In this document: positions 6,401 through 42,389 of the stretch, in pieces
Numbering within the stretch: position 1 is the stretch's first letter
How the letters are laid out: the number at the start of each line of letters is the position of its first letter
From: a virus
Taxonomy: Duplodnaviria; Heunggongvirae; Uroviricota; Caudoviricetes
Virus record (IMG/VR): IMGVR_UViG_3300021256_000063
Coordinates: 1-64,000 of that record
Direction: 5' to 3' (one strand)
Length of the DNA stretch: 64,000 nt
Made by a program: the position numbers and the translations under genes
The notes under the pieces: model-generated
Told to the model about the DNA's origin: nothing
The model's database searches: none
What the model saw: the letters and a program-made list of their open reading frames with translations, nothing else

Positions 6401-9043
6401 TTAATTAACACTTTTAAAACATTCTAAAAATTGATTTGGTGAAATTGTGTAAAGCACTTTAAGTAATAGCGCACGGTTATTATTCATTTTACTTGTAACC
6501 GCTGCCCGTTTCCTTTTTAAAGATGGAGTAATATAAAAAGCACGATCTATTAAGAATGACATTAACCCCTGATATTTTTTTGTTAAACTAATTTCTTTAA
6601 TGTCATTAATTAATTCATCAAAATCATTTCTTAATAATAAAATATCTTCATCAGAATCATCTGCTATATTTTGTTGATACTGTCCCAATTTAAAACTGTA
6701 CTTTTCTATTAACTTTTCTATTTTTTTACTACGCCGCAATGGTAAATCTCTATCATGTTTAATAAAAAAATGATCCATTGGAATATCAGTATCATATGTC
6801 ATAGTAGGATTAATATCAGCATTATACAAATAATTCATAGGACAATTCAACGATGGGTTATAACGTCCTTCTTTAATCTTAGCCGTACTCATTCCAAGAC
6901 GTTTATTATTATATTTTTGAATAGGTTTAAGAAACATGGGATATCCATTTTGTTTAATATTCAAATCTCTGCGTATCCTGTCCGTTTCCTCATTTAAATC
7001 AATATCATAAGCACGTTTGCTAGAATCTATGTATATCTGAGCAAGTACAGCCAGAATACAAACATAATCTTTATATTTTTGATCTGGAAATGAATAAGAA
7101 TAGGAGAGGGCTATTTGTGCCAAGTTACTAGACAATCCAATACCCATCTGACTTGACATTAATTTATTATCTATATATGATAAATCTAGTGCTGTATTTT
7201 TGTAGCGGGTAGTATCTTTTGGAATATTATTCTTCACAGTTGGAAAAGCCGTTTGACAATGTTTAGCATGGCCTACAATCGATAAATGGTTTAATGTTAA
7301 AATTGTGTCAGAATCCTGATCGCTGCCATTATTAGCGTCTTGAAAATCATTTTGCCTCATATTAATAGCAATACAATTCTCACCCAAATAAAAATACTTT
7401 TTCATCCTCCAATCTAAATGATTGTGTAAATACCCCAATGAATTTTGCGAATTAAATGGGCTACGAAATTCTGCTAAATATTCTCCATCTTTAAATCTTT
7501 CGCTATAACACTGAATAGCCAATTCTTCTTGTTCAAAGGTTGGATCACTTTCTGGGTCTTCTCCAACAGCAAATAACAACTCAGCATAAGGAGACCCAAC
7601 AATAACCATATTATCTCCCTCATTAATAATTCGCCCTGTTTTCGCCATTTTAGCATATGTATTAATAATTAATTTCCTACGATCTCGGAAATAACTAGAA
7701 TTAATAAAATCTGGATTGTGTTTAACCAAAGCGATCAATACTTCATAATCATTGGAAAAATTTTGTCCCTTTTTTAAATAGTCAAGAAACGCCTCGTTGT
7801 TTGTTTTTAATTCCTTAATATATTCTTTTGTACATTGGATTACATCTTCCATAATATCTTCAGACATGCAATTTACATGCTGATAACTCATTTTCTGAAC
7901 ATCACCCAACTTAGATTTCTTCGCCGTCTTAACAATTCCAAAATAACTATCATTATCTTCAATAACTCGTTGACACCAATAATCATAATTAATTCTATCA
8001 TTTATAAATTTGCACCATTTCATTGCAGATTCATGGCAAATAATTTTTACGTCTTTAACCAAATGCTCATGACCAAATATATCTGTCAGCTTCCATGTCT
8101 CATAATCAATATCATGATCAGCAGCATAATCTCTAAAAAAACCCTGAATATCTGTGTCAAAACACGCCATTTTACAAAAGTGATTTCTTAAAAGAACAAA
8201 TCCATTCGTTTTAGGAAACTGCGCATGAACAAAGTTATGATCAATTAAACCTTGCCCGTCAAACATTGAATTACCAATTTTAGCATTTTCACGTTTTACT
8301 GCATGAACATGTCCATCATCACCCTTTTCAATGCTTATAATATCTTTAAAACAAAAAGAATCATAATCATCAAGTACTAATATATCATAGGGATTAACCT
8401 TAATCTTCCCAATAATAGTACTAGTTGCCAAAGAAGAATATGCTTCAGCTTCAACCAGAAGAGGATTTTCATATTCATCTAAATCAATCCCCATATATAA
8501 ATATTCTTTAGCTATGTCATACAATTCTTCTCTAATAAAATCAACAGTTCCCTTTTTAGCCTTGCCCGGTGTCCTGAACAACCTCTTATAATGTATTGTC
8601 TGTGGTTCCTGATTTTTACGAGCGGCAGGATAAGTCACATCAACACCCTCGGTATAAACCTTATCCCTTGCTTCAGCCCGATTATATCTAACATACTTGT
8701 CCTGATTTTCTTCAGCTCTCACTAATAACTCATTAAAATATTGTATCTTTTGTGTTTTTTCTTCTTCAGTTAACTTATCATTCTTCTCTGTATCTTTAAT
8801 GCATTTCTTTAAATGCGCCTTTTCTTGTTCATAGCTACGTGTGCCATATTTAAAATCAAGAACAATTACGTCTCTGGTTGATGTATCTTTATATATATCA
8901 AGCCCATGTTTCTTCATGTAATCAAGAAAAAGACTATTACACAACATGGCGTCCGTCATATCAATATGATCACGGACACCAGCATTTTTCTCTAAAAGGC
9001 TTCCGACAACGATGTTTTTAATTTTTATTCCGTATTCACCCAT
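6401..9043 (-). CDS. large hypothetical protein (880 aa), function unknown
   Basis: Long ORF with an AAAGGAGG site. No Walker A motif, no family A or B polymerase motifs, no T7-RNAP motifs and no glycyl-radical motif were recognised. Confidence 0.6.
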   Translation of the reverse strand: MGEYGIKIKNIVVGSLLEKNAGVRDHIDMTDAMLCNSLFLDYMKKHGLDIYKDTSTRDVIVLDFKYGTRSYEQEKAHLKKCIKDTEKNDKLTEEEKTQKIQYFNELLVRAEENQDKYVRYNRAEARDKVYTEGVDVTYPAARKNQEPQTIHYKRLFRTPGKAKKGTVDFIREELYDIAKEYLYMGIDLDEYENPLLVEAEAYSSLATSTIIGKIKVNPYDILVLDDYDSFCFKDIISIEKGDDGHVHAVKRENAKIGNSMFDGQGLIDHNFVHAQFPKTNGFVLLRNHFCKMACFDTDIQGFFRDYAADHDIDYETWKLTDIFGHEHLVKDVKIICHESAMKWCKFINDRINYDYWCQRVIEDNDSYFGIVKTAKKSKLGDVQKMSYQHVNCMSEDIMEDVIQCTKEYIKELKTNNEAFLDYLKKGQNFSNDYEVLIALVKHNPDFINSSYFRDRRKLIINTYAKMAKTGRIINEGDNMVIVGSPYAELLFAVGEDPESDPTFEQEELAIQCYSERFKDGEYLAEFRSPFNSQNSLGYLHNHLDWRMKKYFYLGENCIAINMRQNDFQDANNGSDQDSDTILTLNHLSIVGHAKHCQTAFPTVKNNIPKDTTRYKNTALDLSYIDNKLMSSQMGIGLSSNLAQIALSYSYSFPDQKYKDYVCILAVLAQIYIDSSKRAYDIDLNEETDRIRRDLNIKQNGYPMFLKPIQKYNNKRLGMSTAKIKEGRYNPSLNCPMNYLYNADINPTMTYDTDIPMDHFFIKHDRDLPLRRSKKIEKLIEKYSFKLGQYQQNIADDSDEDILLLRNDFDELINDIKEISLTKKYQGLMSFLIDRAFYITPSLKRKRAAVTSKMNNNRALLLKVLYTISPNQFLECFKSVN

Positions 9044-18389: not shown

Positions 18390-19481
18390 TTAACTTGCAT
18401 TTGCCCATTGCCATCCAAAACCACCGCATTTTCTCCTTATACCATCACATACCTTCCTAATATTTCTTTGTGCGGCTTCAGCACTTTGTCCGGTTTCTTC
18501 TGCTACATTGCGCCCAGCATCTGCTATAGAATTAAATGTGCAAATATAACTACCGTTTATATCATATTTATTAACAGGACGCAACATACCAGAATAGTCA
18601 TCTTTTGATAACGTTGGTGGTTTTTTATCTTTAGTCCACAGAAAGCCACAAGCACTTTGAACTTCACCTCTTAAACATTGATATATACGATGTCTTGCGC
18701 CTGTATCATTAGTTTCTGTACCTAAATACAGTCTATGCACGGCTTCTCTAACATCATCATAAACTCCAATTAATTGTTTGGTATGTACATCCCAACAATA
18801 CACAATTCCATCATATGGCATCATTTGTTTAATACTGGCCTTATACTTTTTTCGTATTATATTATTTATCCCTTTTATTTCTGATTCAGGGATATCATTT
18901 CCATGTGTATCTTTATGATACCGAAATATATATTTACTAGCTCTTAATTGCCGACCTTTAACTACTTTTAATATATTAGTTTTTTTAACGCCAGTTATAT
19001 CTTGTGCTTCATTATATGTCATTGCCGTACCAAGGTATTTACCATTTAAATCAAAGTAATCTATTGGAGTTCTTTTAGCTAAATTATGTTTATTATTTCT
19101 TAATTTTTCTTTATGATCTTCTGATAGAGGAACACCAACATGTGAATAACCACCATCATCTCGATTATATCCATAAGAAGGATGTTGCCATCTGTTTAAA
19201 TTAGTTTTATATTTTTTAATATAATAGCGTTCTCGTTTACAGGCTTGTTCAAAAGAAAGTTTTTCTTCCAAAATAATATGTTTAAAATTATCCCAACCAT
19301 ATTTTTTTATTGCCCTATAAAATACAGTTTGAGTATGATATCCCTCTCCATTTGCCCATCTAACTTCAGGCTTTAATGACGTTATACCAATATACCTCTT
19401 ATCATTGGGGGCTACATGCATATAAACACAATACAACACATCCAAATAATTTTTCCATGTCTTTTTGGTATCTTCTAACAT
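18390..19481 (-). CDS. GIY-YIG homing endonuclease with NUMOD-like repeats
   Basis: VYMHVAPNDKRYIGITS...RWANG matches the GIY-YIG module. SEDHKEKLRNNKHN is NUMOD3-like. Confidence 0.75.
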   Translation of the reverse strand: MLEDTKKTWKNYLDVLYCVYMHVAPNDKRYIGITSLKPEVRWANGEGYHTQTVFYRAIKKYGWDNFKHIILEEKLSFEQACKRERYYIKKYKTNLNRWQHPSYGYNRDDGGYSHVGVPLSEDHKEKLRNNKHNLAKRTPIDYFDLNGKYLGTAMTYNEAQDITGVKKTNILKVVKGRQLRASKYIFRYHKDTHGNDIPESEIKGINNIIRKKYKASIKQMMPYDGIVYCWDVHTKQLIGVYDDVREAVHRLYLGTETNDTGARHRIYQCLRGEVQSACGFLWTKDKKPPTLSKDDYSGMLRPVNKYDINGSYICTFNSIADAGRNVAEETGQSAEAAQRNIRKVCDGIRRKCGGFGWQWANAS

Positions 19482-34579: not shown

Positions 34580-34641
34580 GGGGGTGTACAAAATTTGAAT
34601 ATAGTAAATACTCTTACTATATTCATTTTTCGTACACCCCC
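34580..34641. promoter_or_regulatory. 62-bp near-perfect palindrome (cruciform or hairpin) in the divergent control region
   Basis: GGGGGTGTACAAAATTTGAATATAGTAA-ATACTC-TTACTATATTCATTTTTCGTACACCCCC. Confidence 0.6.
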
Positions 34642-34787
34642 CTCCGTAAAATAAGGGTTTTTTGATGGTCGGATTGTACTACAATTTTAAGGCTAATAAA
34701 TATAAGGGGAATTCCTATATGGAAGGTCTCCACTCCCACAATGATAGTATAACAGGTATGTGTCAAGGTGTCAATAAATAATTAAAT

Positions 34788-35098
34788 AGTGGGGAAAATG
34801 ATTGGAATGGGGGAAATGTGGATAAGTGGGAGGGGATCATTATTTTAATTAATGAAATATTGGGGGAAGTGATGTGGATAAAATGGGGATAAGGGGAGGG
34901 GATAACCAGTGGATTCGTATTTTATTTGTTTTTGGAATGGGATTGGGGTGGGGTAGAGTTGGTGAAGAGAATGGGAGGGAGGAATAAAGTGTAATAAAAT
35001 GGATATGTTTTGTGAGTGTGAAATATTGGGGTATTGAAATAAATACTATATATAGTATGGGTATATGGGAACGGTGGTGTATTTTGTGGTGTGTGGAT
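34788..35098 (+). repeat. ~310 bp G-rich, C-depleted tract with many GGGG runs and iterated motifs (ATGTGGATAA twice; GGAATGGG(G) repeats)
   Basis: The plus strand has almost no C. G4-capable runs are present: tggggaaaatg, ggaatggggg, gtgggagggg, aaggggagggg, gattggggtgggg. Confidence 0.6.
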
Positions 35099-35182
35099 GA
35101 AGCTCGTTCCCGGAAATCCCTGATTTTATGCGGATCTTCCGGTTTAAATATGCCCCCTTTTAACCAAAAACAAACTATAATT

Positions 35183-35219
35183 TGTCAATGTTGACATATA
35201 CCATGGATATGCTATTGTA
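35183..35219 (+). promoter_or_regulatory. rightward sigma70-like promoter (TTGACA-16/17-TATTGT) inside the palindrome TGTCAATGTTGACA
   Basis: -35 at 35191-35196; -10 near 35213-35219. A second TTGACA lies on the opposite strand at 35183-35188. Confidence 0.45.
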
Positions 35220-35789
35220 TGGTCAGGCCGAGGGAAAAGCCACCGGGTGACAATCTGGTACACACAAGCGAATCCCTTGTCCACCATATCGTAGCAATCC
35301 CTACCTGGCTTCCAGGCGCAAGGGTGCGGAACGCAAGTTGAGAGGAGTGCGTTCAATGAATTGACAAATGAATAGGATTGTAGGCGTATGCCGGGAGACC
35401 GACTTCAAGGCGTGCTGTTCCCCAATGCCAAACTGGGGATGTAACAAGCGTTTAGGGTCAGACTATCCTTGTCATGTAGAAATTGGCAAGGCGTCCCTTT
35501 TCAGCAGGACATGGCACTAAAAAAGCAACGAACCCTCCCTCCGTCCAAAGGAAAAAGTCGAAACCACAATCCGATTTCTATATAGGTGCTTGGACTGATG
35601 GATGGTAGGCGGTCTCACAGACTTTTTGCGCCATTTGGCGCCGTCTTGGTCAAACGTGAATCCGACTGTTCCGGACGCCGGGGGTGACAACTCGCCGTGT
35701 GTGCAAAACAAGCGTTCGGTCTCGGGACTTGTTCCCGGTTCCAATTTTCATTTCAGTTTAGGGCTATGCCCGGAAAGGATGGTAACATC
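35220..35789 (+). ncRNA. ~570-nt GC-rich untranslated leader or structured RNA upstream of the first rightward gene
   Basis: GC is about 55% against about 35% in the flanks. No ORF has a ribosome-binding site. Many potential stems are present. Confidence 0.35.
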
Positions 35790-36692
35790 ATGGCAAAAAA
35801 GAACAACAATCTTAATCCCAATCAGTTTATCCCGAGTTGCGCTTCCTACGAAGAGGGTCTCGACCTCGCCGCTTATGCGGCGGCTGTTAACGCCGAGTGG
35901 GACGACACTTTCTCTATCCTGCTCGAAGAGGTGCAGGAACTGGGTGGCAACATCACCCCTGTCTCGGACGATGGCGAGTTCTTCCTTGTCCTGTCCGGTC
36001 TGGACAAAAAGTCCCCTGAGTTCAAGGCGGCTCAGTATACCTGCGGCCTGCTCGAAGACCTGCACAACTCCATCTCCCGGATGTACAAGGACGCCAAGCG
36101 TTCTATCGCCACTATGACCGGGACTGTCCCATCGGATATGTTGGCGGCTCGTGGTGTGTATCGCCGCTCCCGTGACCTGTACGCCGGGGGGTCTTATCAG
36201 GTAGAGTGCAAGAAGACCGAGAAGAACCCTGAGGGTCTCAAGACCGTGACCGCCAAGCGTGGTCTGGCGACCGTCTATGCTGAGTGGTTGTCTGCTATCA
36301 GTGCGGACAAGGTGACCGAGAAACAGGCGGCTAAACTGGCGGCTCGTCTCATGGAAGTGACCAACTTTGGTCGGGTTAATAAGATCGCCGGGTCTCACAA
36401 GTTCAAAGAACTCGGTGCCCGTGGGGTCGCTCAGGACGCCGTTAACGGTCTGCTCGGATACCTGTACAATGGCGCTTATGGCTACCAGTTGGACGACAAG
36501 GGGAACCCTGTCAAAGACGCCAATGGTCAGTTCGTCCAGACCGTCTATGGCGGCAAGTGGGAACTGAAGAAGAGTTTCAACCAGACCAGATTCTGCGTCC
36601 TGACCAAAAACGCCAAGGGTGAGGAAGTCAACGAAGAGTGCGGCGGCACCCTGATTCCTGAGGGCTATGAGATTGTCCGCAAACAGGCGTAA
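35790..36692 (+). CDS. hypothetical protein (GC-rich island gene 1)
   Basis: GGAAAGGATGG then ATG at 35790; high-GC codon usage; 300 aa. Confidence 0.6.
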   Translation: MAKKNNNLNPNQFIPSCASYEEGLDLAAYAAAVNAEWDDTFSILLEEVQELGGNITPVSDDGEFFLVLSGLDKKSPEFKAAQYTCGLLEDLHNSISRMYKDAKRSIATMTGTVPSDMLAARGVYRRSRDLYAGGSYQVECKKTEKNPEGLKTVTAKRGLATVYAEWLSAISADKVTEKQAAKLAARLMEVTNFGRVNKIAGSHKFKELGARGVAQDAVNGLLGYLYNGAYGYQLDDKGNPVKDANGQFVQTVYGGKWELKKSFNQTRFCVLTKNAKGEEVNEECGGTLIPEGYEIVRKQA

Positions 36693-36811
36693 ATTAAATC
36701 CCGGATTCCGACTCCCGGATTGATACCAGATAGGGCACGCAAGGACTCTACATCCTTACGTGCCCGATTGTGGTAACAATCATCATATCACTATCACGAA
36801 AGGGGGGCACT

Positions 36812-37081
36812 ATGTCCAAATTCATTGTCAAGTTTGAAATCCCGTCTCGCCGTACCTACGGCATTACCTGCCAGTCTGAACCGCTCCCTCAGTGGGCAAT
36901 GGCAGATTTCATCCAGTCCCTTACAGACTCCAACTATACCCTGCTGGGGGTGGAGACCGTGGAAGAATTGCCGCCTGAGGCGGTCTATGGCGATGAGGAC
37001 GAGGAAGAACTCTGTGCCGAGGACATTGTCGAAATGGACTGGGACGAGGAGCCAGAAGAAGAAATCATGGAAGAAGAGTAA
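36812..37081 (+). CDS. small acidic protein (GC-rich island)
   Basis: AAAGGGGGG site; C-terminal DEDEEELCAEDIVEMDWDEEPEEEIMEEE. Confidence 0.55.
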   Translation: MSKFIVKFEIPSRRTYGITCQSEPLPQWAMADFIQSLTDSNYTLLGVETVEELPPEAVYGDEDEEELCAEDIVEMDWDEEPEEEIMEEE

Positions 37082-37195
37082 GGGGGATCTATAACCATGG
37101 CAACAGGCACAATTTATCTCAGTGACATTCTGGATTCGTACTCCGAGTATGCCCAATACGGGGGCTACGAGGACGCCGAGGAATGAAATACCACC

Positions 37196-37278
37196 ACCAC
37201 GAGGGGCGCAGTATAGAGCATAGGGCACACGCTCATTCCCTGTACTGCGATTCACGGGTTCGACTCCCGTGACGTGGT
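37196..37278 (+). ncRNA. T-arm and acceptor-like tRNA-fragment-like element
   Basis: ACGGG-TTCGACT-CCCGT T-arm followed by GACGTGG. The 5' partner CCACGAG pairs at 5 of 7 positions. The interior folds as one long hairpin, not a cloverleaf. Confidence 0.3.
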
Positions 37279-37375
37279 CTCTGTCCCGACTGGGACTATC
37301 AGCAACAAGCACGCAATCACTCCGACTGCGTGCTATTTTTATGCCCGATAATTTTCGGGGGAAAGGGGTAACACT

Positions 37376-38164
37376 ATGGCTATGAATCCTGTTTTGGCGC
37401 TCATTAACTGCGATTCCGAGGACAAATTCGTCCGTGATATCGCTGAGGCATATTTCCAGAACCCTATCCATGTCCGCGATCTGTTGACAGAGGACTGCAT
37501 CGAGGCGTGTCTGGATGACTATATGCGCAATCAGGACGTGATTGCAGACATCCGTGACCAGCAGTCCGATTGCAACAACGAGGCCAAGCTGTCCGCAAAA
37601 CAGCGCCGTGCAAGACGCCGTGTGCAGAACCATGCACACAAGCAGTCTGACCGTGCCCACGGGAAAAAGCGTCCGATGTCCCGAAAGGACGCAGTCCGTG
37701 CGAACGATGACCAGGCACAGATGTCCCGTCCCATCGGGATGTGGTCTCTGTATCCAAATGGAGCGTGTCACTTCAGACCGTTCCAGCGGTCAAACAGGCA
37801 CAATAACCATCTGTCTTATGGACAGGAAGTGTTGAACATGCTCAAAGTAGCGTCAAAGCGGGTGACCGCCGAAGACGTCAACTGGGCAAAAGCAGTTGTC
37901 CAGAATGCTGCCGAAGAGGGTCAGGAATGGGCGATCCATGACTACCTCGCAGAACAGCTGGACTACTGTCCGACTCCCGAAAAAGAGGTTGCACTCTTGA
38001 CAGTAATCCTGCTGTCATGGTGGACGGAACAGTTTGACGGATATGTCAGCTGTGGTCTGCCCGCTACAGAAGACTGCTTTAACAGTATCAGTCACAGCAA
38101 CTGGTACAAGTGGGCGGTTAAGCAGGAAGTGCCTCTTATGGTAGAGGCATGGAAACAGGCTTAA
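37376..38164 (+). CDS. hypothetical protein (GC-rich island)
   Basis: GGGGGAAAGGGG site; 262 aa. Confidence 0.55.
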   Translation: MAMNPVLALINCDSEDKFVRDIAEAYFQNPIHVRDLLTEDCIEACLDDYMRNQDVIADIRDQQSDCNNEAKLSAKQRRARRRVQNHAHKQSDRAHGKKRPMSRKDAVRANDDQAQMSRPIGMWSLYPNGACHFRPFQRSNRHNNHLSYGQEVLNMLKVASKRVTAEDVNWAKAVVQNAAEEGQEWAIHDYLAEQLDYCPTPEKEVALLTVILLSWWTEQFDGYVSCGLPATEDCFNSISHSNWYKWAVKQEVPLMVEAWKQA

Positions 38165-38175
38165 TCCCAGATCCC

Positions 38176-38220
38176 CGACACACAAACAGACCATAGAACG
38201 CAGAATCTGTTTGTGTGTCG
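38176..38220 (+). other. perfect 14-bp-stem hairpin CGACACACAAACAG...CTGTTTGTGTGTCG
   Basis: Lies directly after the stop of the gene at 37376..38164. No U-run follows. Confidence 0.5.
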
Positions 38221-38262
38221 TAATGTAGGATTAAACGCAAATAAAAGAAAGAGAGGTAAATC

Positions 38263-38493
38263 ATGGGACTTCACAATAATGACGGAAAGGGATACAAAAA
38301 TATCCCTGACCTTATCGAAGCTATCCGCAAGTATGTTCCGCAGTTCACCGCAACGGAACTGCGCAACATGGTCACGGAAATGCATAACTGCGGTTATGTG
38401 TTTAATGACCGTGAAAAGGAAAACATCACGGTCATTATCTGTGACAAAGGAACCTGTGGCTATTACTTTGGACTTGAGGGAATTCAGTCCTGA
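38263..38493 (+). CDS. hypothetical protein
   Basis: AGAGAGGTAAA site. Confidence 0.5.
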   Translation: MGLHNNDGKGYKNIPDLIEAIRKYVPQFTATELRNMVTEMHNCGYVFNDREKENITVIICDKGTCGYYFGLEGIQS

Positions 38494-38512
38494 AGAGAAA
38501 GGAGTAACACAA

Positions 38513-38701
38513 ATGAAAACATGGCATAATGTCGAGATGTCCGCAACTGACCCTGATACCAACAAACTGCGGACATTCTGCAAGGAAAATGACGTCTATT
38601 ATGAGGCATCCGACTGCGGATATGGTCACGTTCACTTTGAAATCCTGTGCGACAAGGAAACCGCAAACAGGATTGACAGCGAGGTGTTCGGTATATGGTA
38701 A
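38513..38701 (+). CDS. hypothetical protein
   Basis: AAGGAG site; an internal Met of the track ORF is used. Confidence 0.5.
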   Translation: MKTWHNVEMSATDPDTNKLRTFCKENDVYYEASDCGYGHVHFEILCDKETANRIDSEVFGIW

Positions 38702-38882
38702 AAGCAAACGAACACCCTGTCCATGTTGTTCTACGTGATTGGTCTAAATCTAAAAAGACAAATAATTCGGTCACAATTGCAGAAACCCACACTCACAAAA
38801 ATAAAAAAAGAAACAAATCAATGATTGAGGTTGAGGGCTACATGTGCTATGAACCGTGGGATGTATAAAGGAAATAGTTGTT

Positions 38883-38912
38883 ATTGACAATATATAATTA
38901 AATAATAAAATA
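38883..38912 (+). promoter_or_regulatory. sigma70-like promoter TTGACA-16-TAAAAT
   Basis: gttattgacaatatataattaaataataaaat. Confidence 0.4.
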
Positions 38913-38943
38913 AATACACAATAGAAAGGAAAGGTATTATATT

Positions 38944-40740
38944 ATGTTCAACTTTACAGCAAACAACAGAAACTTTTTCATGACCGAGGGAACCGCTCTG
39001 CTGAACAAGTACGGTCACGAGACCGCTGAAAAGGGCATGACCGCCATCTGGGAAGAGTATTCCCTGAATAAGGCACCTGTAGCAGATATTCTGTCTCGTC
39101 ATCCCAACTGGGATCCCGACACCCTGTCTGTCCATCTGACAGAAGAATATTCTACCTCTATCGATCACGACAAGGTAGAAGCATTCTGCGGATTCCTTCA
39201 GCGCAGACTGCGTGACTGGTGCAAAACAAGAGAAATCAAAATCGCTGGAATGAGTGGCGAAGAGGTTTGCTACGCTCGTGACCGACTGAGAGAGGTTATG
39301 CAACACATGAATTCCATTCCACAGCAATATCAGCCCGTTACCTGTGCGGGTCGCACCATGTCAGATTTACAGGAAGATCTGACCAGGCTGAACGAACTGA
39401 ACCGGCGTTTCTACTTCGAAACAGAAACGATGTGCGGATATAGCATCTCAAACGACAATTACAAAAAGGCAAGTGCAATTAAAAATATTGTCCGCTATAT
39501 CTCACATCATACGGAAAACGTTCTGGACGAATCTTTTGCGGAAGCACTCAATAACTGCGCCGTTTACTTTTTCCCCGTGGACGAAAACGGAGAAGTCATT
39601 AAGAAAGCCCGTTTCTCTGCGGGTATGAAGACCAGTAAAGCGGTCTCCAAGTTCTTCTCTCTTGCAGGAGACCACTTTGTAAAGTTTAAAGACATACAAG
39701 AAACCGTTTGGATGGATCAGAGTGGGAATTTCCATACCAGAGAAAAGGACATGGGCTGGAATCACTTCTTCAGCGCTTACGCAGATGGAATTAATCCCAT
39801 CAAGGTAAAGCGTCATACATATATAAGTGTTAACCCGCTAGACTACCTGACCATGTCTTTCGGCAATGGCTGGGCGTCCTGCCATACAATCGATCATAAC
39901 AACAATCGACCCAACAACGGAAGACATACATATGAGGGTTGCTACCAGTCTGGCACCCTTAGTTATATGCTTGACGGGTCTTCCATCGTTATGTATACAA
40001 CCAAGGAAGATATTGACACAACCTGCCCTTGGGAAGCAGATAAGATCAACAGGTGTATGTTCCACCTTGGCGAAGAGAAGTTTGTTCAGGGCAGAACATA
40101 TCCTGACGGAAGAGACAACCCTGATAATGAGGAGGCAGTTACTATTGCTTCCACATTCAGGAATATCTTCCAGAGAGTCATCTCTGAATGCCTTGATGTG
40201 CCCAACATGTGGGTCATCAAGAGAAACAACGGCGATTACACAGCCAGCTTTGGTACGCATTACAGAGACTATCTCTGCTATAGCGACACACTGACATGTA
40301 TTCTCAAGGGGAATGAAAACAATGAGATTATCCGCATTGGGCATGATCCGATTTGCCCTGTGTGTGGTGAAGAGCATAGCAACGAATCGTCTCTGCATTG
40401 TGGAGACGATCATGAATGCTACCACAACGGAAACTATGTTTTCTGTGAGCGTTGTGGCGCTCGTATCAATCTTGATCACGATGATTATATTCGTGATGAA
40501 GACACAGGAGATTATTACTGTGACTACGAGTGTGCCGAGGCTCGTGACGTATTCTACTGTGCGAATGTCGATGAAGCGCACAGCGAAGACGTCTATTATG
40601 ACGAGTATGCTGAGGAATGGTTCTATGATCCAAATGAAGAGCATGTCATAACGGAAAATGGTTACCACTTCATGACAGAAGATAATGCCATTGAAGCTGG
40701 CTACATTCAGGACGAAGACGGGGATTGGGTCAGAGCATAA
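38944..40740 (+). CDS. large hypothetical protein with a C-terminal multi-Cys (zinc-ribbon-like) region
   Basis: 598 aa; CPVCGEEH...CGDDHECYH...CERCGAR. Confidence 0.6.
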   Translation: MFNFTANNRNFFMTEGTALLNKYGHETAEKGMTAIWEEYSLNKAPVADILSRHPNWDPDTLSVHLTEEYSTSIDHDKVEAFCGFLQRRLRDWCKTREIKIAGMSGEEVCYARDRLREVMQHMNSIPQQYQPVTCAGRTMSDLQEDLTRLNELNRRFYFETETMCGYSISNDNYKKASAIKNIVRYISHHTENVLDESFAEALNNCAVYFFPVDENGEVIKKARFSAGMKTSKAVSKFFSLAGDHFVKFKDIQETVWMDQSGNFHTREKDMGWNHFFSAYADGINPIKVKRHTYISVNPLDYLTMSFGNGWASCHTIDHNNNRPNNGRHTYEGCYQSGTLSYMLDGSSIVMYTTKEDIDTTCPWEADKINRCMFHLGEEKFVQGRTYPDGRDNPDNEEAVTIASTFRNIFQRVISECLDVPNMWVIKRNNGDYTASFGTHYRDYLCYSDTLTCILKGNENNEIIRIGHDPICPVCGEEHSNESSLHCGDDHECYHNGNYVFCERCGARINLDHDDYIRDEDTGDYYCDYECAEARDVFYCANVDEAHSEDVYYDEYAEEWFYDPNEEHVITENGYHFMTEDNAIEAGYIQDEDGDWVRA

Positions 40741-41777: not shown

Positions 41778-42035
41778 ATGAAAGTGTGGCTTGTAGAATA
41801 TGTGGAAATGGAAGAAGAAGACATTCACCGCACACTTATGCGAATCTGTGATTCATACGATAAGGCAAAAGCATATATCGAAAGACAATATGAGGATGCC
41901 CGTGCGCATATAGATAAAGAATATGATTCAATTACAGAACTGAATGTTGTTCACAGAGAAACGAACGATCAGTTTTGGTGGTATGAAAATGATGAAGCAT
42001 GTATATATTTCGTCTCTTGTAAAGCGGTTATGTGA
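41778..42035 (+). CDS. hypothetical protein
   Basis: AAGGAG site. Confidence 0.5.
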   Translation: MKVWLVEYVEMEEEDIHRTLMRICDSYDKAKAYIERQYEDARAHIDKEYDSITELNVVHRETNDQFWWYENDEACIYFVSCKAVM

Positions 42036-42086
42036 GTCCTAATCACATCCCACACATACAATCCACAAGAGAAATAAGGAGATAAT

Positions 42087-42260
42087 ATGACAAAAAACAG
42101 AGCAAAAGAAATTATAAATAATCTCATTGATCACTTGGCAATAGCAATGGACACTCAGGAACAAATTGAAGCATTGGTTAATATCGGCTTCACTAAAAAG
42201 GAGTTAAAAGAATTCCATTATAGTGAAGTCGATATAGAACAATATTATCCTGAGTCCTAA
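42087..42260 (+). CDS. small hypothetical protein (57 aa), absent from the ORF track
   Basis: AAGGAGATAAT then ATG; ends at TAA 42258-42260. Confidence 0.4.
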   Translation: MTKNRAKEIINNLIDHLAIAMDTQEQIEALVNIGFTKKELKEFHYSEVDIEQYYPES

Positions 42261-42389
42261 TCACATACACCGCACACAGTCCACAAGAGAAAGCAGAATG
42301 GATTGTGTGCGTTAATGTGGAGAGGACTTCCACAGAAACAAATTATAATTATTTTATCTATCGGGCATAGCCCAGAAAGGAAAACCACT

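Follow-up and report, generated by a model that had tools for sequence, protein, structure and literature searches.

The GC-rich block at positions 35201-38150 of a Caudoviricetes genome (IMG/VR record IMGVR_UViG_3300021256_000063, positions 1-64,000; these 64,000 nt as a whole are called the window below) is, as we conclude with high confidence, a position-specific and clade-wide feature of a swappable early operon. The reading that we prefer, with a probability of about 0.6, is that the block represents a promoter-proximal immediate-early accessory operon whose cassettes are swapped within one phage group, and that its GC-richness is of long standing and reflects adaptation to the codons of the host. 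As to any particular cause of the composition, our confidence is moderate to low. A recent import from a high-GC organism, put forward in the preliminary description of this DNA, probably did not take place.

The compositional island reported in that description is real. According to the sliding-window GC plot, positions 35201-38150 contain 53.2% GC, against a mean of 36.8% (standard deviation 2.4%, maximum 42.9%) in the remaining segments of the same size (2950 nt); in 1-kb steps the values are 49-55% at 35-38 kb and 30-44% everywhere else in the window. At a resolution of 200 nt the GC content climbs at ~35200 and drops under 45% at ~38150, where the gene g3 ends. Of the limits given at first (35220-38701) the start therefore holds and the end does not, g4 and g5 being intermediate (44-46% GC). 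The codon usage is as distinct as had been stated: the GC content of third codon positions (GC3) is 0.69 in g1, 0.63 in g2, 0.60 in g2b and 0.61 in g3, while in ordinary genes of both arms of the genome it is 0.31-0.38. Long open reading frames (ORFs) on the antisense strand are enriched in the block (35748-36398 and 36794-37771), as noted before, but they are not confined to it, since others lie opposite g7, g10 and 45.2-46.6 kb, where the genes are moderately GC-rich as well.

The share of several codons in the island departs sharply from that found elsewhere in the window: AAC (0.69 vs. 0.22), GAC (0.76 vs. 0.22), ATC (0.67 vs. 0.16), CAG (0.97 vs. 0.59) and ACC (0.62 vs. 0.11). The shift at third positions is mainly one from T-ending to C-ending codons, to which an excess of G is added in the core. 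The shares of C and G at third positions (C3 and G3) are 0.34 and 0.31 in the island and 0.10 and 0.20 in the left arm, the background ranging over 0.10-0.15 for C3 and 0.19-0.20 for G3; in the tail genes g4, g5, g7 and g10 C3 alone is raised (0.30), with G3 at background (0.20). Moreover, ACG (0.03) and TCG (0.08) remain rare in the island although ACC (0.62) and TCC (0.38) increase. The rarity of these two codons and the C3-only shift of the tail genes mean that plain GC pressure is not at work. The preference of NNC over NNT is the usual signature of translational selection, and the pattern therefore resembles selection for a particular codon set.

Related loci, recovered via the left-flank gene, g1 and g3, have the same architecture in all cases. 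They comprise the IMG/VR contigs L001-L003 and L011, the 138.7-kb ENA contig L012, which is the closest relative, with its short duplicate L013, the contigs L014-L016, and the short contigs L004-L007 and L017-L019. A rumen origin of the group seems likely from the names of samples (SRR873604 and 'SHIW14', for example); blastn with 34600-39000 found no match among 50,697 phage records, and the nearest cultured phage, Enterocloster phage CB457P1, shares 26% identity in one protein. In L001-L003, L012 and L014-L016 the locus (the first 3-6 kb past the control region) has a GC content of 0.43-0.55 and the left arm one of 0.33-0.36, and GC falls with distance from the control region; low-GC relatives largely sharing the GC content of the locus were the very finding that the preliminary description had named as speaking against an import. 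Correspondingly, C3 in L012, L014 and L016 is 0.25-0.31 in the early genes, 0.09-0.10 in the left arm and 0.17-0.19 further right. Genes unrelated to each other that occupy the first slot have a GC3 of 0.69 (the window), 0.70 (L012), 0.62 (L016) and 0.48 (L001). Within gene families the composition persists as well: the nine g3 homologues (L001-L003, L011-L016; 38-96% identity) have a GC3 of 0.50-0.64, and the g1 homologues at 31-69% identity one of 0.52-0.57, with 0.57 in those at 31-34%, which are preceded by the same promoter and by the same 5' module of the leader. Since synonymous sites are saturated at 31-38% identity, the composition is a maintained equilibrium and not the fading relic of an import. 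No donor outside the group was found, every readable context of a g1 or g3 homologue belonging to this phage group (g2, g4 and g5 were not searched).

The genes themselves are exchanged as cassettes within the group. Compared with L012, the window is 90% identical up to 35185, shows no identity over 35186-36707, is 85% identical over 36708-38260, again shows none over g4, and is 95% identical from 38496 on. In place of 35186-36707 L012 carries a TTGACA promoter of its own, a ~650-nt leader at 52% GC and a gene of 227 aa. The unit replaced thus consists of promoter, leader and g1, and its left junction (35185/35186) lies just upstream of the -35 box of the promoter P1. Contigs L005-L007 have the ends of the leader and g1 at 95% identity next to a backbone at 73%; L004 combines a g1 at 69% amino-acid identity and a different g2 with a next linker at 89%; and L004 and L018 hold other combinations of g1 variants and leader modules. 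The junctions (35185/36708 and 38260/38496) are located in the promoter and the linkers, and recombination appears to occur at conserved linkers, to judge from these breakpoints.

The intergenic sequences are better conserved than the genes between them, and their stems are retained on the plus strand via compensatory and G-U changes. The helices were checked per sequence by script, as MAFFT indels were inconsistent with them, and covariation here denotes paired changes, without formal statistics. Linker 1, between g1 and g2, is 78-94% identical in L003, L004, L006, L012, L014, L017 and L018 despite differing flanking genes; its stem contains one compensatory change (A-T to T-A), and the z-score of its folding (z) is -4.5. 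Linker 3, at the junction of g3 and g4, is 78-93% identical in L002, L003, L006, L011 and L012. The region upstream of g3 is a four-part composite (z = -4.4). The stem of its hairpin directly behind the tRNA-like element covaries in relatives (GCGCAC/GTGCGC, GTGCAT/ATGCAC and, with a U-G pair, GCGTAC/GTGCGC), and so does the terminator-like stem in L006, L003, L016 and L002. The protein encoded by g3 carries an invariant arginine-rich helix at residues ~72-97 (KQRRARRRVQNHAHKQSDRAHGK; K-QRRA-RRVQN--HKQSDR-HGK), flanked by N- and C-terminal domains that, according to the alignment, are swapped among homologues. Binding of this motif to the neighboring hairpin or element was considered and rejected, since variants of the motif and RNA types do not co-vary.

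The leader preceding g1 consists of three modules. Six-frame translation revealed no plausible ORF in it: the sole start behind a Shine-Dalgarno-like site (GAGAGGAG) opens a 2-codon ORF (ATG AAT TGA, 35357-35365), in agreement with the earlier statement that the leader lacks an ORF preceded by a ribosome-binding site (RBS). An alternative genetic code was rejected, all three kinds of stop codon being present in every frame, and so was an origin as a decayed gene or repeat, as tblastx and blastn gave the homologous 5' module only. The suggestion that the leader is a structured RNA may hold for small hairpins with a few compensatory changes (e.g., GCGCCA/TGGCGC vs. GCACGC/GCGTGC; 3-5 variants compared), but as a whole the leader of the window is not demonstrably one structured RNA. 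Its folding does not exceed that of shuffled controls (z = -1.2 and -0.3), its core is swapped, and Rfam 15 (including ROOL, GOLLD, HEARO, OLE and riboswitches) gave no match to it at E<=10; no Rfam match at gathering score was obtained over the window, nor any at E<=1 for the leaders of L001, L004, L006, L013 and L016. Modules are replaced in L005-L007, L017, L018 and L004, the middle one giving way in L005-L007 to an unrelated sequence of similar length. In other cassettes the leader has a clear structure (z = -8.2 in L001, -6.0 in L016, -4.2 in L004 and -3.7 in L012; range -2.4 to -8.2), and thus a long GC-rich 5' untranslated region is a design feature common to the group. A scan of viral contigs with a 19-mer found no further leader homologues; the 16-mer GGTCAGGCCGAGGGAA gave at least 120 matches in metagenomes, which are due to chance as the pattern is too short, and none among the matches listed is related by blastn.

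Two alternative leaders have features of their own. At 8088-8150, in the leader of L012, an ORF of 12 codons (MRRTHAHRIRPP) stands behind a strong Shine-Dalgarno site (AAAGGAGG) and could encode a leader peptide. The first-cassette leader of L001 (9100-9330, minus strand of the locus) is the one with z = -8.2 and has three tandem YCCC-GAAU-GGGR hairpins; being akin to GUCCC-GACU-GGGAC at 37283-37296, these may be a site for a phage RNA-binding protein.

The tRNA-like element lies upstream of g3 and is present in 10 loci at the same internal position, in three sequence types. Described at first as a tRNA fragment at 37196-37278 that could be left from an integration site, it does have a canonical T-arm (37253-37270) with a GGTTCGACTCC loop of the GGTTCGAnTCC type. 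Its internal arm includes the invariant GCATAGGG...CTCATTCCCTGT, a motif found once in the window. The closing stem covaries (CCACG/CGTGG vs. GCACT/AGTGC), with G-U in L016; pairing of the G-U type, seen on the plus strand, favors a structure in the RNA of this strand. The Rfam tRNA model RF00005 matches at positions 46-63 (the T-arm) only, scoring 12.2 bits where the gathering score is 29, and ARAGORN at default settings predicts no tRNA at 37197-37278. A real tRNA was rejected because ARAGORN at thresholds of 50-70% gives Tyr, Met or Glu inconsistently across homologous copies, although in some members a 5-bp stem with a 7-nt loop (CTCATTC) occupies the anticodon position. An attachment-site remnant was rejected as well: the element is conserved and single-copy, its 5' strand covaries, no integrase is adjacent, and the junctions of the g1 and g4 cassettes are elsewhere. 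The copy in L001 is decayed and the element is therefore dispensable there.

The element is followed by a motif, G(G/T)GAC-N2-8-CAGCAA, that occurs seven times on the plus strand of the window (37292, 58007, 60872, 60990, 61178, 62934 and 63673), with 0.26 occurrences expected on both strands; the last six copies are in the tRNA cluster at 58-64 kb. Copies directly follow tRNA-Gln, the interrupted tRNA at 61052-61175, and the tRNA-like element. This distribution ties the element to phage tRNA gene units and not to an integration site, and the motif might serve as a signal for processing or as a promoter specific to the phage. As for the tRNA genes themselves, tRNA finders at default settings miss three tRNA-shaped genes on the plus strand (61052-61175, 63838-63958 and 63200-63590), whose anticodon regions are interrupted by insertions; the inserts of two are ~45-50 nt long, and the third contains a group I intron (RF00028 at 63247-63510, 39.9 bits, E 6e-8, under the gathering score). 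The tRNA-Gln (86 nt) and tRNA-Thr (88 nt) reported by ARAGORN are over-long. A gene resembling GIY-YIG/homing endonucleases is present on the minus strand of the left arm (18390-19481), and, considering it together with the intron in the tRNA, the phage carries several selfish elements. It is conceivable, though unlikely, that the pre-terminator tRNA mimic and the promoter-linked leader modules make up a previously undescribed set of cis-acting RNAs, the C3/GC composition being an early-gene adaptation and no foreign trace; in this case the element could be a processing point for RNase P/Z or a decoy for defences that target tRNA.

Several processes could have produced such an island. If the block had come from a high-GC donor by recent horizontal transfer, with insertion behind the promoter and no amelioration so far, this would agree with the size of the contrast in composition and codon usage and with the island genes being orphans. 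Moreover, the cassette of leader and g1 is missing in L001 and L012, the nearest relatives by backbone, yet a contig with only 73% identity in the flank has it at 95%, and therefore at least this cassette moved recently. Against such a donor, the relatives are GC-rich at the locus whatever genes they have there, the g1 and g3 families keep their GC3 down to 31-38% amino-acid identity, and the homologues found are all in the phage group, with no bacterial or high-GC match. Nor are there signs of insertion at the cassette junctions: neither an integrase nor a tRNA was found at them (an integrase-like gene is 18 kb away), and the search for flanking direct repeats, which the first description had recommended, yielded only a 20-nt AT-rich promoter-like match between 34769 and 38885, in two promoters. 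We consider this explanation very improbable; what survives of the proposed horizontal acquisition is the exchange of promoter, leader and g1.

A by-product of recombination, i.e. GC-biased gene conversion or another regional mutational bias acting on coding and non-coding DNA alike, would suit a locus where the genome is most mosaic and where GC content falls away from the junction-rich zone, and a regional process predicts the 49-54% GC of leader and linkers. It would not predict, if it is a strand-symmetric AT-to-GC bias, that ACG and TCG are still rare, or that C3 rises about threefold and G3 only ~1.5-fold, with C3 alone raised in the tail genes; besides, biased conversion in phages is extrapolated from bacterial work and is not known to be an established process. 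We regard it as rather unlikely. Selection at the level of nucleic acids, which strikes us as doubtful to a like degree, could take two forms: GC-rich DNA that enters first would evade nucleases or silencers targeting AT-rich sequence, or GC-rich RNA would resist RNases and form structures for processing or antitermination. The strongly structured leaders of L001, L016 and L012 and the covarying hairpins of the linkers are consistent with the latter; the internal terminator upstream of g3 implies regulated read-through, and the arginine-rich helix of g3 is like those of RNA-binding antiterminators, a resemblance only. On the other hand, the leader of the window has no excess folding, the strongest signal is at synonymous codon positions, the variants of the arginine motif do not follow the RNA element types, and the first form presupposes that this DNA enters first.

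We return to the immediate-early accessory operon adapted to host codons. The traits observed agree with it: a promoter of the host type directly precedes the block in the divergent control region, the genes are small orphans with strong RBSs, and the relatives are mosaic. According to this reading, transcription from the sigma-70-type P1 would run through the long leader, which encodes no protein, into six small orphan genes; between these lie structured RNA linkers, namely hairpins, an internal terminator and the tRNA-like element. The operon is assembled from cassettes traded among phages of the group, with breakpoints that appear to fall at conserved linkers. Its GC-richness would result from selection for host-preferred codons and stable structured RNA in genes expressed before phage tRNAs exist, and the AT-rich rest of the genome would depend on phage tRNAs that read A-ending codons. 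ARAGORN finds three such tRNAs in the window (Gln-UUG, Pro-UGG and Thr-UGU), and the corresponding codons are rarer in the island than elsewhere (CAA, 0.03 vs. 0.41; CCA, 0.12 vs. 0.31; ACA, 0.21 vs. 0.44).

A number of points weigh against this explanation. ACA is no rarer than ACT, and high GC3 by itself yields few A-ending codons, so that the link to the phage tRNAs is weak. The non-coding leader and linkers are GC-rich too (49-54%), which codon selection cannot explain; a second factor is therefore needed, either RNA structure and stability, or a regional conversion or mutation bias. The host would, from the strong Shine-Dalgarno sites, be of a Firmicutes type; scans of genome contigs with g10 and with the endolysin gave no match that would identify it. 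The operon is called early only from where it lies, downstream of a sigma-70-type promoter in the divergent region of control, none of the island genes has an assigned function, and the comparison set is small (~12 informative contigs).

The genes of the operon are, as said, orphans (Table 1). Six ORFs with Shine-Dalgarno sites are located in 35790-38701, and not five as counted at first: g2b had been overlooked, and the 162-aa ORF with a GTG start (38213-38701) is in fact two genes in different frames. The differences between g1 and its 69% identical copy in L004 number 78, 53 and 167 at codon positions 1, 2 and 3, and this concentration at the third position indicates that g1 is coding. It belongs to no family in Pfam, PHROGs or NCBIfam, its confident AF2 model (pLDDT 79) has no meaningful neighbor in PDB or BFVD, and its homologues form 2 clusters in a set of 5.8 billion proteins and 6 clusters in one of 1.84 billion representatives. 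The product of g2 contains 27 D/E and 4 K/R (pI 4.05), and its position is held in relatives by other genes of 97-106 aa. The short g2b is annotated as a 29-aa gene in L005, L006 and L018, with 80% amino-acid identity by tblastn. For g3, likewise, no Pfam, PHROG or NCBIfam family was found; none of its 22 homologues has a Pfam domain, and the confidence of its AF2 model (pLDDT 60.6) is too low for a structure search. In L012 g4 is replaced by a different gene of 60 aa.

Downstream of P2 lies g7 (38944-40740, 598 aa, 46% GC), whose product has a Cys/His-rich C-terminal part and only a weak match to a PHROG of unknown function; L012 has the gene with 95% conservation, and L001-L003 lack it. Further genes are g10 (DUF932/TIGR03299) and one for a ParB-like protein, to which relatives add RadC, DUF5688 and GP88. 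These families are common in the first-entering and anti-restriction regions of mobile elements, and the island genes probably act in host takeover or counter-defence, as their setting suggests. Upstream of g10 there is a 42-nt direct repeat (42033-42074 and 42251-42292, 86% identical, 218 nt apart) that flanks a small variable ORF and is kept in L001, L002, L011, L012 and L015.

As to the genome setting, minus-strand genes extend up to 34500 and plus-strand genes begin at 35790, so that two divergent arms are formed; the window also encodes an endolysin, a homing endonuclease, a nucleotidyltransferase, an integrase-like protein and tRNAs. P1 lies directly upstream of the block, which does begin right after the main rightward promoter, as had been stated. 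Since P2 is found in the AT-rich spacer after g6, the GC-rich block and g4-g6 would constitute one transcription unit. The tract between the divergent promoters has no C on the plus strand, a GC skew of up to +0.9 and repeated units of the ATGTGGATAA..GGGG type, and it is kept in L001, L012 and L018; it could be an iteron/origin array, a protein-binding array or G-quadruplex-forming DNA.

Table 1. Coordinates of the features of the control region and the early operon in the window.
Feature	Position	Strand	Characteristics
Leftward sigma-70-type promoter	34774-34746	-	Promoter scan
C-free, G-rich tract, 230 nt	34780-35010		Between divergent promoters; 38.5% GC, outside the GC island
Early promoter P1, sigma-70-type	35191-35218	+	TTGACA, 16 nt, TATTGT, TG extension; promoter scan
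Leader (5' untranslated region), ~570 nt	35226-35789	+	~51% GC; three modules
Leader, 5' stem-loop module, ~100 nt	to ~35323	+	Common to L006, L017, L018
Leader, middle module, ~300 nt	35290-35585	+	Swappable; replaced in relatives
Leader, 3' hairpin module	35586-35789	+	GGGC-TAT-GCCC hairpin last, adjoining Shine-Dalgarno site
g1, 300 aa	35790-36692	+	Orphan, first early gene; GC 55.7%, GC3 0.69
Linker 1	36693-36811	+	13-bp hairpin 36733-36765; small hairpin GATTGT-GGTA-ACAATC; Shine-Dalgarno site of g2
g2, 89 aa	36812-37081	+	Very acidic; ORF with GAAAGGGGGG Shine-Dalgarno site
g2b, 29 codons	37097-37186	+	Conserved ORF; GC3 0.60
tRNA-like RNA element	37197-37278	+	Closing stem CCACG/CGTGG around internal arm and T-arm
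Hairpin GTCCC-GACT-GGGAC	37283-37296	+	Directly 3' of tRNA-like element; overlaps GGGAC-N3-CAGCAA (37292-37305)
Intrinsic-terminator-like hairpin	37309-37342	+	GCACGCA...TGCGTGC, then TATTTTTAT; inside operon, upstream of g3
Hairpin CCCGA..TCGGG	37344-37368	+	Fused to g3 Shine-Dalgarno site GGAAAGGGG; kept in 9/9 loci with the region
g3, 262 aa	37376-38164	+	Modular; GC3 0.61
Linker 3	38176-38220	+	Perfect 15-bp hairpin CGACACACAAACAGA / TCTGTTTGTGTGTCG; inverted repeat at g3/g4 junction
g4, 76 aa	38263-38493	+	44% GC; homologues in L001, L003 at 61-65% amino-acid identity
g5, 62 aa	38513-38701	+	46% GC; ORF with AGAAAGGAG Shine-Dalgarno site
g6, 57 aa	38695-38868	+	Background GC (37%); last gene before P2
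Promoter P2, sigma-70-type	38884-38911	+	TTGACA, 16 nt, TAAAAT; in spacer of 30-34% GC after g6

Among known systems, the class I region of phage T7 comes to mind, where the host RNA polymerase promoters A1-A3 are followed by a leader of several hundred nucleotides, RNase III hairpins stand between the early genes, and the first gene, 0.3, encodes the acidic DNA mimic Ocr. The operon of the window likewise has a sigma-70-type promoter and then a long non-coding leader, small accessory genes in a polycistron with conserved hairpins between them, and a very acidic small protein (g2) among its first genes. It differs in that its genes lack sequence or fold homology to T7 proteins, that RNase III cleavage is suggested only by analogy, and that promoter and leader are themselves within a swappable cassette; moreover, no GC or C3 island of this kind is known from the early region of T7. 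Hypervariable regions for host takeover or accessory functions are represented in large virulent phages by the host-takeover module of SPO1 and the 'hyperplastic' regions of T4, and further parallels are the lambdoid morons and boundary sequences. Small orphan genes with strong RBSs near early promoters, and mosaicism with breakpoints in conserved intergenic sequences, are common to these regions and to our locus; unlike them, here a whole genome position has a distinct composition that is kept across a phage group. In T4, differences in codon usage are linked to phage-encoded tRNAs. That early and late genes of phages differ in codon usage has been documented (PMC5683454). The window resembles this case in its promoter-proximal set of C-ending codons and its AT-rich rest with tRNAs for A-ending codons, but the contrast is unusually large (GC3 of 0.6-0.7 vs. 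~0.35) and reaches non-coding DNA.

As for the RNA elements, tRNA-like structures (TLS) are known from the 3' TLS of plant viruses, the tRNA-like domain of tmRNA, and mascRNA. Our element shares with them and with tRNA the T-arm with its loop and a closing stem in the acceptor position; unlike tRNA, it has no CCA and no consistent D-arm or anticodon identity, and it is situated inside an mRNA, between the 29-codon ORF and the terminator. The arginine-rich helix of g3 and the GUCCC-GACU-GGGAC hairpin beside an intrinsic terminator in an early operon recall lambda N and nut (boxB). This is an analogy only, as g3 has no homology to N (no Pfam match) and is 262 aa long with extra domains, and, unlike in N/nut, the type of hairpin and the variant of the arginine motif do not co-vary.

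On the whole, the feature is an early accessory module that is hypervariable and has a codon usage of its own, a variant of a kind already known; less ordinary are its conserved compositional polarity and the tRNA-like element with structured linkers. GC islands in phages are usually read as foreign DNA, while here such an island is a stable, position-specific trait of an early module whose genes are swapped. If the adaptation to host translation is true, composition could flag immediate-early or counter-defence blocks in uncultured phages and hint at their hosts. The linkers and the tRNA-like element are candidate signals of RNA processing or antitermination in an unstudied group of large phages.

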